Shown here piece by piece: positions 6,656-44,163 of a stretch of DNA of 44,163 nt. The stretch comes from a virus: UHGV virus genome UHGV-0207246, one strand, 5' to 3'. The notes beneath the pieces are model-generated. The model saw only the letters and a list, made by a program, of their open reading frames with translations. It was not told the DNA's origin and made no database searches. How positions within the stretch are numbered: the first letter of the stretch is position 1; every line of letters starts with the position of its first letter. Made by a program: the position numbers and the translations under genes.

Positions 6656-6679
6656 AAGGCCCCGAAAGGGGCCTTTTCT
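6656..6679. terminator. bidirectional rho-independent terminator
   Basis: AAGGCCCC-GAAA-GGGGCCTT flanked by A-run and T-run between convergent genes. Confidence 0.75.
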
Positions 6680-8428: not shown

Positions 8429-8456
8429 AATTATTTCCTCAGTAGGTTACAGGTGA

Positions 8457-8485
8457 ATAGTACCCTATTATATTGGGGTGTGCAA
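8457..8485 (-). promoter_or_regulatory. class I early-type promoter (TTGCAC-17-TACTAT) for the minus-strand island
   Basis: Reverse complement TTGCACACCCCAATATAATAGGGTACTATTCACC matches the 30384-30412 promoter at about 32 of 35 positions; contains AATAG-N4-CTATT inverted repeat. Confidence 0.6.
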
Positions 8486-30061: not shown

Positions 30062-30091
30062 TTGAAAGTTCTTGACTCATGTTTGTATAAT
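30062..30091 (+). promoter_or_regulatory. rightward promoter (TTGAAA-18-TATAAT) of a non-coding unit
   Basis: Perfect -10 TATAAT, -35 TTGAAA with 18 bp spacer; no ORF before the terminator at 30291. Confidence 0.55.
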
Positions 30092-30118
30092 GGTTTTGGG
30101 ACTTGTATGTATTACGGA

Positions 30119-30150
30119 GTTGACGAACCCTCCCCGAGGGATTCGTCAAC
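30119..30150. repeat. 32-bp near-perfect palindrome GTTGACGAACCCTCCCCGAGGGATTCGTCAAC
   Basis: Outer arms GTTGACGAA/TTCGTCAAC and inner arms CCCTC/GAGGG. Confidence 0.8.
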
Positions 30151-30290
30151 CCCTCCCAGACAGCTGAGATGCTTGCCTTGGGGTTTAAGGATAAGTGTAT
30201 CTAAATCTCATTTAAAGAAGTAACCAGCTGAAATATCTACTGTTTCTTCCTATGCCGTAGATTCGCAACCGTAAAAATGTAACGATTATT

Positions 30291-30318
30291 GGGCAGGCTT
30301 AAGGCCTGCCCTTTAGTT
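30291..30318 (+). terminator. rho-independent terminator
   Basis: GGGCAGGC-TTAAG-GCCTGCCC followed by TTTAGTT. Confidence 0.6.
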
Positions 30319-30383
30319 ACCAAGTAATAAGAATAAAGGCACAACCTTCCCCGAAGAATCACAACGGCAACGTAACTATTCTC

Positions 30384-30412
30384 TTGCGCACCCCAACATA
30401 ATAGGATACTAT
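30384..30412 (+). promoter_or_regulatory. class I early-type promoter (TTGCGC-17-TACTAT)
   Basis: TTGCGCACCCCAACATAATAGGATACTAT; conserved leader to RBS GAGGAG. Confidence 0.6.
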
Positions 30413-30445
30413 TCACTTATCGAAACGAGACAGAGGAGTGGGGTT

Positions 30446-40733: not shown

Positions 40734-40766
40734 CTTTAAATCCCTTATCTCTCGTTTCGATAGCTG

Positions 40767-40795
40767 AATAGTACCCTATTATATTGGTGTCTGCA
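40767..40795 (-). promoter_or_regulatory. class I early-type promoter (TTGCAG-17-TACTAT)
   Basis: Reverse complement TTGCAGACACCAATATAATAGGGTACTAT; same region may carry a rightward TCGATA-17-TATATT promoter. Confidence 0.55.
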
Positions 40796-40840
40796 AATAT
40801 TATTTTTATGCGTTACACTGGCGATACTACAGGAGGGCAT

Positions 40841-42778
40841 ATGAGCTTACTTACATCCCTAATCAGCCACCAGATATGGCTGCAACGCACCGCATCCGGC
40901 GAAGTGAAAGACCTCACACCGTTCATTCAGGAGATGCGGGATGAAATCAAACGGCAGGTGCTGTTATTCGGTGACGACGGGCGAAGCACTGCGCGACTGA
41001 ATAAATTGTTACGCGACCTAGAAGAAGCACTGACAGGACTTACGGGTGACTGGCAAACAAAGCTGACAGAAGACCTTAAGGACCTGGCGGCGTATGAGGC
41101 TGAGTGGAATGTAAAGACACTCACGGCCAACGTCAACGCTGAATTTGTTACGCCTACTGCCGAACAGGTGTGGGCCGCTGCCGAGTTTCAGCCTCTGTCG
41201 TTAAGCGACAAGCCAGTAGATTTCACTAAGCTGATGGGTGGCTGGGGTGAAACAGAAGTATCGCGCCTGGTAACTGGCGTTAAGATGGGCTTTGTTCAGG
41301 GTCAAACCACACGGCAGATTGTTAAGAATGTTGTAGGCGCTGGCGGACTGGCCGACATCTCTGAGCGTAACGCCGCTACCGTAATACGTACGGCGCTGGC
41401 TCACGTATCCAACGAAGCCCGTAACGAGACGTACCGCCAGAACGACGACATCATCGAGAAATACGAGTGGGTGTCAACGCTGGACAGCCGTACCAGTACA
41501 ACGTGTTTCACGGCTGAAACAGAATTAGCGCCCATCGCGGGGATGGACGCGGTAATGCGCGGACTCTATTCAGGAAAAATCTTTACCATCGAACTTTCCA
41601 ACGGCGAGAAGTTCAGTGGCACCCCGAAACACCCTGTACTCACGCAATACGGATGGACTCCGCTTGATGAACTCGATCCAACTAAGCATGTCTTGTATAC
41701 CACTGTTGACAAAGTGACTGTGCTCGAAACAGTGAAGAACATAAACATGCCAGCCAGAGCGGATTATATTTTTAATACGCTCGCTGATTTCCCCATCAGG
41801 AAAATGGTAAGCACGAGTCCCGCGGCAACAGATTTCTATGGCGATGGAGTGGGACTCAATGGCAAAATCGACATTGTACGGGCCGATTGCAAACTGCGGA
41901 ACTACGTCCACGCCAGCGGAATTAAACAATTCAAAAGCGAGGGTTTCAGTCTTATTCATAGCGCCGCTTTGCTGTCGGACGATAGCTCTGGCGATTTTCT
42001 CCTCCGGGGTGAATGTCCTGTGAGTGTGCCCGCGCTTAGCGAGGCCAAGTGTTTTGACCATAGAATAGAAAACTGTTTTGCTTACTTGGGTCCTTCTTAT
42101 GCACTCAATAGGCGGGACGCCGGACTCGAACAATTCTATAGCCCTTTTTTGATTCAAAATGGTGTCGTTAGAAACCCAACCACGGGGTCGATCATGCATG
42201 AGTCCGAGCTTCTTGAGAAATGTTGTTACCGTGGTGGTAGTGACGCCGTAATTCTTGGCTATGATGCTGGCGGGAGTGCCATCTCGGTACAAAGAACAAA
42301 TATCATCCGCATAAGCGTCGAGTTTAGAACGTGCCATGTTTATACCCTCTCTAGTAGTCAAGGATATTATACAGCAGGTAGTGCGATAGTCAAGAATTGC
42401 AGGGCCAGAGACGGAATGACGTGGGAAATTGGAAAAGGGCCGATGCCGCCAGCGCATCCGAATTGCAGAAGTACCACGGCCCCGGTGATTAGCTCGGAGT
42501 TCGACTTCCTTGATAAAGGCGCAAAACGCGCGGCACGCGGGGCGGACGGCGGTACTCAGGTAAGCGCGGACACAACCTACTACGAGTTCCTTAAACAACA
42601 GCCCGCATGGTTTCAGGACCAGGCGCTCGGCCCTGTTCGCGGTAAGATTTTCCGTAACAGCGGTATATCACCAGAGGAGTTTCGCGTAATATCTGTAGAT
42701 GGTTTTGGGCGTCCGCTCACGCTTAAGCAGATGGCGGAACTCGATAAACGTGTTGCTGATTATCTGAAAGGGGAATAA
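40841..42778 (+). CDS. head morphogenesis protein (Mu F / SPP1 gp7-like) containing a 298-codon intein
   Basis: RBS AGGAGGG; extein motif LDSRTSTT | C RARDGMTWEIGKGPMPPAHPNCRS is contiguous only after removing residues 241-538 of the track ORF. Confidence 0.6.
   Translation: MSLLTSLISHQIWLQRTASGEVKDLTPFIQEMRDEIKRQVLLFGDDGRSTARLNKLLRDLEEALTGLTGDWQTKLTEDLKDLAAYEAEWNVKTLTANVNAEFVTPTAEQVWAAAEFQPLSLSDKPVDFTKLMGGWGETEVSRLVTGVKMGFVQGQTTRQIVKNVVGAGGLADISERNAATVIRTALAHVSNEARNETYRQNDDIIEKYEWVSTLDSRTSTTCFTAETELAPIAGMDAVMRGLYSGKIFTIELSNGEKFSGTPKHPVLTQYGWTPLDELDPTKHVLYTTVDKVTVLETVKNINMPARADYIFNTLADFPIRKMVSTSPAATDFYGDGVGLNGKIDIVRADCKLRNYVHASGIKQFKSEGFSLIHSAALLSDDSSGDFLLRGECPVSVPALSEAKCFDHRIENCFAYLGPSYALNRRDAGLEQFYSPFLIQNGVVRNPTTGSIMHESELLEKCCYRGGSDAVILGYDAGGSAISVQRTNIIRISVEFRTCHVYTLSSSQGYYTAGSAIVKNCRARDGMTWEIGKGPMPPAHPNCRSTTAPVISSEFDFLDKGAKRAARGADGGTQVSADTTYYEFLKQQPAWFQDQALGPVRGKIFRNSGISPEEFRVISVDGFGRPLTLKQMAELDKRVADYLKGE
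41570..42337 (-). CDS. antisense gene inside the intein: tandem HTH DNA-binding repeats plus DUF559 (Vsr-like PD-(D/E)XK) endonuclease, candidate homing endonuclease
   Basis: IGPYNVDFA...IAIEI...GWHVYVL pattern matches DUF559 (GGYRLDFA...LAVEVDG...GWRVLRF); HTH segments ASIIAKNYGVTTTTVTTFLKKLGL and IECIRRTQVSKTVFYSMVKTLGL; RBS GAGGG 7 nt before ATG. Confidence 0.55.
   Translation of the reverse strand: MARSKLDAYADDICSLYRDGTPASIIAKNYGVTTTTVTTFLKKLGLMHDRPRGWVSNDTILNQKRAIELFESGVPPIECIRRTQVSKTVFYSMVKTLGLAKRGHTHRTFTPEEKIARAIVRQQSGAMNKTETLAFELFNSAGVDVVPQFAIGPYNVDFAIESHSIAIEICCRGTRAYHFPDGEISERIKNIIRSGWHVYVLHCFEHSHFVNSGIQDMLSWIEFIKRSPSVLREYRVFRGATELLAVGKFDGKDFS
42366..42393 (-). promoter_or_regulatory. 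promoter for the antisense endonuclease gene (TTGACT-16-TATAAT), encoded within intein blocks F/G
   Basis: Minus strand TTGACTATCGCACTACCTGCTGTATAAT about 30 nt upstream of the antisense ATG. Confidence 0.5.
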
Positions 42779-43240: not shown

Positions 43241-43272
43241 AAAAGGCCCCGTATGGGGCCCTAGTTTTATTT
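43241..43272. terminator. bidirectional rho-independent terminator
   Basis: AAAAGGCCCC-GTAT-GGGGCC then AGTTTTATTT. Confidence 0.65.
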
Positions 43273-43788
43273 AAATCGCGCAGGCATTAACACCATAAAG
43301 GCCGTGTTTGAAAATAGTATTTTACATCCTCTGGTTTGGTCCTGGAAATCGAAACGAGCAATTTCATTTTTGTATGCCTTAGAAATCTTGTACGCGTCTG
43401 CCAAATAACGCAGGGTGAACCCTATACTATCGACAACACCCGGTGTGATGTGCGCCACGCGTCTCCAGTCAGGAAAGTTTCCTTCTACAACATCTACCGG
43501 AAGTGTACATATAAGCGCACGATTATCGTCATAGAAAGATACACTGCCGTTGTCGTGGTTTACCTCCGCGTAGTTAAATTTAGAAGGCTCTCTCCCTTTG
43601 ATGTCTATGAGAGTCCCTTTCTCAACGTTGGTCTTCACATTGTCGCAGAACAATCTATGACCGTCCGTAGACACTATCAATCCTTCAGGGTCTATGTAAA
43701 AAGCGTTCAAATAGTAGCGAACATCATTTTTAGCCCTGCATATTTTCGCCCCTACATACGCAGGGAAAGTAATTACTGTAGTAACCAT
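43267..43788 (-). CDS. hypothetical protein (173 aa) expressed from class I early-type promoter
   Basis: ORF track; RBS AGGAGATGAAAA. Confidence 0.5.
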   Translation of the reverse strand: MVTTVITFPAYVGAKICRAKNDVRYYLNAFYIDPEGLIVSTDGHRLFCDNVKTNVEKGTLIDIKGREPSKFNYAEVNHDNGSVSFYDDNRALICTLPVDVVEGNFPDWRRVAHITPGVVDSIGFTLRYLADAYKISKAYKNEIARFDFQDQTRGCKILFSNTAFMVLMPARFK

Positions 43789-43815
43789 TTTTCATCTCCT
43801 GTTTAAATTAACTGA

Positions 43816-43844
43816 ATAGTACCCTGTTATGTTGGTGTGCGCAA
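43816..43844 (-). promoter_or_regulatory. class I early-type promoter (TTGCGC-17-TACTAT)
   Basis: Reverse complement TTGCGCACACCAACATAACAGGGTACTAT. Confidence 0.55.
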
Positions 43845-43898
43845 ACTATTTATTTACGTATTCCAGTTATTCCACCGAATTGTAAATGTTAGAATAAA

Positions 43899-43912
43899 CT
43901 ATTCGAATAGTT
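43899..43912. repeat. perfect 14-bp palindrome ACTATTCGAATAGT abutting a -35 element
   Basis: Uses the same CTATT/AATAG pentamer found in the promoter families. Confidence 0.7.
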
Positions 43913-43939
43913 GACTTTTCACTAAAAATATGATAAGCT
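43911..43939 (+). promoter_or_regulatory. rightward promoter (TTGACT-17-TAAGCT with TGn extended -10)
   Basis: TTGACTTTTCACTAAAAATATGATAAGCT. Confidence 0.45.
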
Positions 43940-43945
43940 CCACCT

Positions 43946-44147
43946 GAGCTTGTGAAGTATGAACAAGCGACCGCGGCGCGGGCAGGTAACGGAGCGGGAC
44001 GTAAGTCCTGAGTGTAGTTACGCTGACGCGTTCGGAAGGGCCATACTCTATTGCTTGTGTAAAAAGTAACTGGTTTACTGAGATTACGCCGTTTCTATGT
44101 TTAAATGATAAGGACTAGCGCCCCGCTTTAAGGCGGGGCTTTACTTA
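43946..44147 (+). ncRNA. candidate non-coding transcript or structured leader (about 200 nt)
   Basis: No ORF over 10 codons between promoter 43911-43939 and terminator 44120-44147. Confidence 0.3.
44120..44147 (+). terminator. rho-independent terminator/attenuator upstream of the spanin RBS
   Basis: GCCCCGCT-TTAA-GGCGGGGC then TTTACTT. Confidence 0.55.
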
Positions 44148-44163
44148 TCGAGAAAGGAGAAAC

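Follow-up and report, generated by a model that had tools for sequence, protein, structure and literature searches.

A predicted structured RNA that heads the late operon of Guernseyvirinae phages, with its own promoter and a terminator-like stem

Which kind of element occupies positions 43911-44147, directly before the spanin genes, and what might it do at the entry to the late genes? The window, by which we mean the whole stretch of 44,163 nucleotides that was analysed, is the genome of a siphovirus of the Guernseyvirinae, of the Kagunavirus/Jerseyvirus kind. Phages of these two genera are among the most often isolated phages of E. coli and Salmonella and are used in therapy, in biocontrol and as chassis in synthetic biology. 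To our knowledge, the Guernseyvirinae do not encode an RNA polymerase, and neither an antiterminator nor a late activator is known for them. An earlier note on this DNA had read the stretch as a promoter, about 200 nt without an ORF and a terminator-like hairpin, and had suggested a small RNA or a terminator-controlled leader regulating spanin expression. Judged from its homologues and predicted folds, the unit is most probably a structured non-coding RNA of ~200 nt, and it appears to represent a previously undescribed, subfamily-wide family of structured RNAs that is of a known general kind.

The genes next to the unit lie at the other end of the window, the end of which joins its start in ~40 contiguous relatives (...GGCGGGGCTTTACTTATCGAGAAAGGGGAAACATGAATCTTAAAGCAACTGTC). 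Since these relatives are contiguous across the junction, the Shine-Dalgarno sequence at the window end serves the ATG at position 1, and the claim that the hairpin stands directly before the Shine-Dalgarno of that ATG was thus borne out. The surroundings of the unit comprise the following features, of which the downstream genes were taken from the annotation of relatives and the ORF list.

43243-43262, both strands: bidirectional terminator GGCCCC-GTAT-GGGGCC, directly after the decoration gene, where it ends the upstream packaging and head genes ahead of the promoter of the unit
44154-44159, + strand: Shine-Dalgarno AAGGAG, four nt before the window end, for the i-spanin ATG at position 1
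1-387, + strand: i-spanin gene, the first gene downstream, annotated as i-spanin or Rz-like in relatives
~350-502, + strand: o-spanin gene, overlapping the i-spanin gene
end at 1419, + strand: scaffold gene
1422-2471, + strand: major capsid gene
2487-2508, + strand: strong terminator within the operon, following the capsid gene; no obvious promoter behind it
6656-6675, + strand: strong terminator inside the operon, with no obvious promoter after it

The unit heads the whole late operon, from the spanins through scaffold and capsid to the tail genes. Upstream, a leftward gene of 173 codons (43267-43788, - strand) separates it from the decoration gene; records annotate this gene as RusA-like or as a sliding clamp. 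In relatives this slot is variable and holds a 204-nt gene, two small genes or nothing, and in many records homology to the unit starts only at ~43859.

The region 43790-44163 was matched by 181 phage records at 93-99% identity, whereas the subfamily set, which we defined by a capsid protein at least 80% identical to that of the window, held 462 records, so that over half of them at first appeared to be without the unit. Direct reading of the same position in SETP3 and Jersey revealed a diverged homologue, here called type C, with 60-65% identity to the type A of the window as estimated from aligned sequences. The layout of type C is that of type A, with T(T/A)GACT, 17 nt, TG-n-TACGCT, a short 5' hairpin, the two blocks ACCGCGGYGCGG plus UUCGGAAGGG, a closing hairpin rich in GC and a Shine-Dalgarno. 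As type C adds 269 records, the unit stands before the spanins in ~450 of ~462 Guernseyvirinae records, and in 58 of 58 distinct type A and type C sequences it adjoins the spanin ribosome-binding site without an intervening promoter. In the more distant Klebsiella phage VLCpiS6a, the capsid of which is 44% identical, both the unit and the spanins are missing from this place, and the head morphogenesis gene runs directly into the scaffold gene. Pattern scans of viral contigs, metagenomes and genomes added the sub-variants A2 and B2. Beyond A, A2, B (described below), B2 and C these scans gave no type outside the subfamily, with the 21-base pattern reaching close relatives only; in metagenomes and genomes it found Guernseyvirinae contigs plus chance matches in GC-rich genomes and nothing else, and the matches of a loose pattern in viral contigs were mostly due to chance. 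Two records stand apart. A 738-bp scaffold of a bacterial assembly (NZ_JACVEL010000048.1, Taishania pollutisoli scaffold48) carries a type C Jerseyvirus leader and is most likely phage contamination of the assembly, and PP935706.1 (Salmonella phage vB_SE130_2P, 164,642 bp) carries a type A and a type C unit far apart and looks like a concatenation of several Jerseyvirus genomes, not a single phage.

Some genomes hold a second, related copy. This paralogue, type B, is complete in ~41 of ~460 records (~10% of genomes) and lies 10.7-11.7 kb upstream of the unit on the same strand, flanked by an HTH/excisionase-like early gene that runs leftward and by the early genes that run rightward. Type B has the promoter, P1 and P2 in common with type A (84% identity in the one case aligned by BLAST), and its 3' half is different, ending in a large composite stem followed by UUUU; downstream of it a separate conserved early-gene promoter is found. 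Neither BLAST nor the covariance model described below gave a type B copy or any second copy of the unit in the window. At its early divergent locus the window has an unrelated cassette of promoter, RNA and terminator instead (30062-30320). It has TTGAAA-18-TATAAT, ~200 nt that contain a long hairpin (GUUGACGAACCCUC...GAGGGAUUCGUCAAC) and, at 30291-30311, a terminator, and it is presumably the "first unit" of the earlier note. The full cassette was found in ~21 phage records only, its last ~100 nt in 335.

Among 39 type A loci the unit was on average 98.4% identical to the window (99.1% in the 5' domain of the RNA, 98.8% in its 3' half), as compared to 88.2% for the decoration gene, 90.8% for the i-spanin, 94.8% for the scaffold and 90.6% for the capsid gene. 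Including its unpaired stretches, the whole length of the RNA is ~99% conserved among type A genomes. A non-coding unit that is more conserved than its coding neighbours over its whole length points to strong constraint or to a recent spread as a cassette. It is the most conserved DNA of its neighbourhood, and it stands where the operon of capsid and tail genes is entered.

The 5' boundary of the unit is set by a predicted promoter, and the features at this end are as follows.

43897-43912, no strand: perfect 16-nt palindrome AACTATTCGAATAGTT, which abuts and overlaps the -35 (the first T is shared with ACTATTCGAATAGT)
43911-43939, + strand: predicted sigma-70-type promoter, with the -35 TTGACT at 43911-43916, a 17-nt spacer, TG at 43931-43932 and the -10 TAAGCT at 43934-43939 (direct reading and conservation)
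43946-43947, + strand: putative transcription start, a purine 7-8 nt past the -10, from promoter geometry

All elements of the TTGACT-17-TAAGCT promoter with its extended -10 TG, as described in the earlier note, were present on direct reading. A consensus scan did not list this promoter because TAAGCT agrees with TATAAT at only three of six positions, the A at position 2 and the T at position 6 among them, and the evidence for it is its conservation. In most of 73 distinct variants the -35 reads TTGACT or TAGACT, and TG-n-TA(A/C)GCT occurs in all of them. The 17-nt spacing is kept in SETP3 and Jersey despite a different spacer sequence, and, likewise, types A, B and C share the promoter elements and the spacing while the spacer sequence differs. 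The palindrome reported at the promoter, ACTATTCGAATAGT at 43898-43911, was confirmed as a single exact copy, with near matches in the window at chance level. It is specific to type A, type C having GAATA-CTT-TATTC a few nt upstream instead, and it may be a protein-binding site.

A separate 32-nt conserved promoter-like element (TTGCRC-17-TACTATTCA) occurs in four copies in the window, at 8454-8485 (-), 30384-30415 (+), 40765-40796 (-) and 43813-43844 (-), of which none would be expected by chance. Each copy is located upstream of a gene, namely three small leftward genes that lie within the structural region and, as the fourth, the first of the rightward early genes, and the conservation of the spacer suggests a specific regulator for these elements. 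Where records gave multiple matches in the region search, these were due to this repeated element upstream of the unit and not to the RNA. A published RNA-seq analysis of a relative gives annotated genes only (PMC12645636).

The statement that the ~200 nt behind the promoter are without an ORF did not hold, as an ORF of 36 codons lies inside.

43959-44069, + strand: 36-codon ORF, "hypothetical protein" in some GenBank records, not a gene

This ORF was rejected as a protein gene. In several type A variants it is cut to 9 or 17 codons or frameshifted, in A2 and B2 it lies in another frame, and in type C and most type B sequences it is missing. It has no Shine-Dalgarno, differences between variants alter the peptide, and a Pfam search gave no match. 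The non-coding character of the stretch is supported by this lack of a conserved reading frame among homologues, and the 36-aa "hypothetical protein" is a recurrent annotation error that is corrected here.

How is the transcript folded? We describe its 5' domain by two stems and a tail.

43948-43968, + strand: P1, a GCUUGU-9 nt-ACAAGC hairpin at the very 5' end of the transcript (inferred +2), from MFE folding and comparison
43971-44035, + strand: P2, a long irregular helix of ~23 modelled pairs with bulges and an internal loop, from covariation; its parts are P2a (CCG-C-GGNGCGG / CNGCNUUCGG, whose bulged C and tandem G.U pairs are conserved), P2b, the internal loop GGAGC / UGAGUGUAG and P2c with a variable apical hairpin
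44036-44060, + strand: tail and P3 region, the invariant AAGGGYC followed by CUAUUGCUUGUG, from direct reading and RNAalifold

P1 reads GCUUGU/GCAAGC in type B, and type C has a different hairpin, ACGCU-UUC-AGCGU, at the same place. For P2, 92% of the cells were standard pairs in 23 distinct sequences, as compared to 25-45% when the partners were slid by 1-3 columns. Six pairs were changed on both sides, and none of 500 shuffles reached the observed covariation score. One pair of P2a is C-G in type A, A-U in type B and U-A in C, A2 and B2, and changes from G-C to G.U were observed as well. The bulged C, the two tandem G.U pairs and the GGAGC/UGAGUGUAG loop are conserved and the apical loop varies (GUAA, AUUA, GUCA, UCACAA). 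The lowest five pairs of P2a never vary and are unproven for that reason, and a small tetraloop hairpin of UUC-GGAA-GGG is a possible alternative. A covariance model of P2 matched the window at 43970-44044 only (93 bits) and elsewhere found known copies only. In the tail region a weak candidate hairpin, GGGC/GCUU (P3), may form. Moreover, the motif GCUUGUG from the 5' strand of P1 (43948-43954) occurs again ~100 nt downstream in type A (44052-44058), type C repeats a different motif of its own, GCUUUCAG, at the two corresponding places, and type B is without such a repeat. The recurrence of GCUUGUG and GCUUUCAG suggests an alternative pairing or a repeated binding site. RNAalifold also paired the 5' end over a long range with a stretch after P5, with two compensatory pairs, a pairing only marginally better than in shuffled sequences.

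The 3' part of the unit is formed by a second long stem.

44107-44149, + strand: P5, a three-part stem with the base GAUAAG/CUUAUC, the middle UAG/UUA and a GC-rich top at 44120-44139, from folds of ~30 variants
44120-44147, + strand: part resembling an intrinsic terminator, an 8-bp hairpin (seven G-C pairs) with a 4-nt loop, then UUUACUUA (five T in eight)

The GC-rich hairpin and T-run of the earlier note were found at 44120-44147, with the hairpin proper at 44120-44139 and a tail that reads TTTACTTATC. In types A and C, however, this "terminator" is the top of a longer three-part stem of ~16-18 pairs, and the U tract is base-paired into lower P5 in both types. Type C has the same architecture in another sequence (UAUACG/CGUAUA, UUAA/UUAG, GCCCGGC/GCCGGGC). 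The lower stem rests on folds and direct reading, types A and C being offset by one column in MAFFT alignments. The top stem has compensatory variants, GCCCTGC/GCAGGGC and GCCCGAC/GTCGGGC. Both P2 and the top of P5 are kept by compensatory change, and the covariation of the structure supports a structured RNA behind the conserved promoter. After the closing hairpin, type C (SETP3, Jersey; 269 records) continues with UUAGCGUAU, a poor U tract, and in both types P5 ends 2-4 nt before the Shine-Dalgarno.

These results bear on the function proposed earlier. A non-coding, structured element directly before the spanin ribosome-binding site was indeed found. The terminator control of such a leader does not appear to be conserved, given the poor U tract of type C, and spanin regulation is too narrow a scope, since the unit heads the whole late operon and its 5' half also occurs at an early locus without a spanin gene. 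Our leading interpretation, which we put forward tentatively, is that the unit acts in cis as a read-through (antitermination-type) leader of the late structural operon. A host sigma-70 promoter would start the transcript, the first ~100 nt of which would fold at once into P1 and P2. This module would work in cis, on either the transcribing complex or the nascent transcript, and set how much transcription passes P5 and later terminators, e.g. 2487-2508. It would be a nut- or put-like element, and a phage or host protein may or may not bind to the bulges conserved in P2. Where transcription ends at P5, a stable RNA of ~200 nt would arise as a by-product, much as lambda PR' leaves 6S RNA. We infer both the termination at P5 and the effect of the 5' module on read-through.

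The architecture of the locus argues for such a read-through leader. As the bidirectional terminator at 43243-43262 stops upstream transcription, the late genes should depend on the promoter of the unit or on read-through. Because, in addition, P5 and the start of the spanin genes have no promoter between them, the genes for spanins, scaffold, capsid and tail would require the promoter of the unit as well as transcription past P5 and, further on, past 2487-2508. Furthermore, promoter, P1 and P2 are reused before another terminator-like stem at the early locus, which suggests that the job of the module concerns such stems and therefore favours a read-through leader in cis. Against it, the poor U tract of type C means that there is perhaps little termination to overcome. 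Similarity to put, a boxA consensus and a Q or N homologue were not found in the searches described below. Since type B is followed by a separate promoter, a free-standing RNA gene fits that locus equally well.

Comparable leaders are known from other phages. The lambda PR'-qut-6S-tR' region resembles the unit in its constitutive-looking promoter, a non-coding leader of ~200 nt and a terminator before lysis and then structural genes, and here, too, terminated transcripts could persist as a small RNA. Lambda PR' leaves 6S RNA, and the sRNA StxS derives from that late leader. In contrast to the lambda PR' leader, no Q homologue was detected, the unit has no -10-like pause element that is conserved across types, its leader is highly structured and conserved, unlike 6S, and its terminator is weak in type C. 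None of 20 small ORFs compared with PHROGs and none of the 83 annotated genes of Bas70 was a homologue of a Q or N antiterminator, and the only regulators seen were two HTH proteins. With lambda nut and the boxB-boxA-boxC elements of rrn leaders the unit shares a hairpin followed by a short conserved single-stranded stretch and its presence in two operon leaders. ACUCUAUUG is faintly boxA-like and is preceded by a hairpin as in rrn leaders. However, ACUCUAUUG departs from the boxA consensus GCUCUUUA, type C (GCUAUAUUG) still more so, and, as compared to boxB, the apical loop of P2 is variable and an N-like protein was not found.

The put RNAs of HK022 are polymerase-utilisation RNAs that bring about processive antitermination without a protein, by way of the zinc-binding domain of the beta' subunit. 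We considered that P1 and P2 might likewise be a self-sufficient put-like RNA that on emerging binds host RNA polymerase and makes it terminator-resistant across the ~18-kb late operon and, with type B, the early operon. We regard this stronger form of the read-through leader as doubtful. Like the unit, putL and putR consist of RNA at or next to a sigma-70 start, form stem-loops with conserved bulges and have terminators downstream (PMC9378689). In some genomes related copies of the element head two operons here as well, the window having a single copy, and nutL/nutR as well as putL/putR sit behind two early promoters (PMC9378689). P1 and P2 are longer than put (~100 nt vs ~70), the second copy is present in ~10% of genomes, and an action on polymerase is predicted only. 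Homology to put was rejected, as the P2 model gave no match in the HK022 genome at E values up to 10. If the put-like reading were true, this would be the first protein-independent processive antiterminator RNA outside HK022-like temperate phages, in a virulent subfamily that is in wide use for therapy and with a sequence unrelated to put.

Next to the read-through leader, the strongest contender is a free-standing, abundant sRNA of ~200 nt that reaches from the promoter to P5 and acts in trans on RNAs or proteins of host or phage, e.g. as a regulator, sponge or decoy, with read-through into the spanins being incidental. We consider it somewhat unlikely. It would account for a strong predicted promoter of its own and a terminator-like 3' end, for a 5' hairpin and a long 3' stem as are typical of stable RNAs, and for a conservation among type A genomes that extends to unpaired stretches. 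Besides, type B and 30062-30320 are cassettes of promoter, RNA and terminator that are followed by a separate promoter. However, complementarity to phage mRNA did not exceed 11 nt, which is chance level, and a search of 5,426 E. coli genomes gave no homologue or mimic. Hfq-type sRNAs have a long uninterrupted U tail, whereas the tail of the unit is a short, broken one (UUUACUU) that is almost missing in type C. Moreover, the strict adjacency to the spanin Shine-Dalgarno in all variants suggests a coupling in cis.

The unit could also be a structural 5' UTR on which the stability and processing of the mRNA and the translation of the spanins depend, a reading that we hold to be unlikely. P1, which begins at the inferred +2, would shield the 5' end, P2 and P5 would be processing or stabilising elements for RNase III/E, and the 3' part would partly mask spanin initiation. 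Both P2, with ~23 bp and bulges, and P5, with ~16-18 bp, are long hairpins of irregular shape that contain internal loops, and P2, in the model with its 23 pairs, has the feature of RNase III sites, i.e. at least ~20 bp of irregular double-stranded RNA with an internal loop. In this respect the unit resembles the R-sites of T7 early mRNA, which likewise are extended, irregular hairpins, have a conserved internal loop that separates a lower from an upper stem and stand between parts of transcription units. It differs from them in that there is no sequence similarity, in its position at the 5' end of the transcript and not between cistrons, and in that cleavage is predicted only. As to masking, the type A model pairs GUUUCU and GAGAUU (44080-44096) with the Shine-Dalgarno spacer and spanin codons 2-3 (unpaired probability below 0.1), in addition to P5 ending just before the Shine-Dalgarno. 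This pairing is marginal in type A (-11.6 vs -7.5 +/- 2.5 kcal/mol; 65 of 1000 shuffles did equally well). For type C the pairing is no better than in shuffled sequence, and we do not rely on masking of spanin initiation for that reason. Furthermore, simple stabilisers rarely keep invariant loops, bulges and tails across types that have diverged to 60-65% identity, and the 5' module is reused at a locus without a spanin gene. The read-through leader, the sRNA and the 5' UTR are not mutually exclusive.

We regard two further explanations as very improbable. A riboswitch-like sensor, with P2 as the aptamer for a metabolite or ion and P5 as the expression platform, would fit the classic layout of promoter, conserved structured 5' domain, variable linker, terminator-like hairpin and Shine-Dalgarno, but Rfam gave no match at permissive thresholds, P2 is a single long hairpin and not a junction or pseudoknot, a candidate antiterminator pairing of the P2a 5' strand with the P5 5' arm (found by eye) is not conserved in type C, RNAalifold predicts no alternative to P5 and the type C platform is without a U tract. 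A DNA-level element (replication origin, single-strand initiation site or operator cluster) would agree with hairpin covariation, which also fits single-stranded DNA structure, and with the palindrome at the promoter, just as a 36-aa protein would agree with the ORF annotated in several records; yet the exact borders of the unit are a conserved promoter and a terminator-like stem, both on one strand, the conserved G.U pairs of P2a (G-T in DNA) and the G-C to G.U changes favour RNA, and the ORF is broken or absent in many variants, lacks a Shine-Dalgarno and encodes a peptide that is altered between variants.

Whichever of these functions applies, the RNA does not resemble described families. 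Rfam 15 gave no match in the whole window at gathering thresholds, and at permissive thresholds the best match on the region reached 16 bits against a cut-off of 42; this match, to wcaG, was rejected as chance. A scan for tRNA and tmRNA was negative, and our literature search found no description of this RNA. It is a new family that could be added to Rfam. By its conservation, position and RNA covariation the unit is a concrete and testable candidate control point for the timing or level of late gene expression in these phages.

Another part of the window also differs from its relatives. The Mu-F-like head morphogenesis gene (40784-42778, + strand) has 664 codons as compared to 347 in relatives. 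The extra ~317 codons gave a weak, sub-threshold match to intein splicing, and an antisense ORF of 342 codons within the insertion (41570-42598, - strand) gave weak HTH and restriction-endonuclease-like matches. The insertion may be an intein or a homing-endonuclease insertion.
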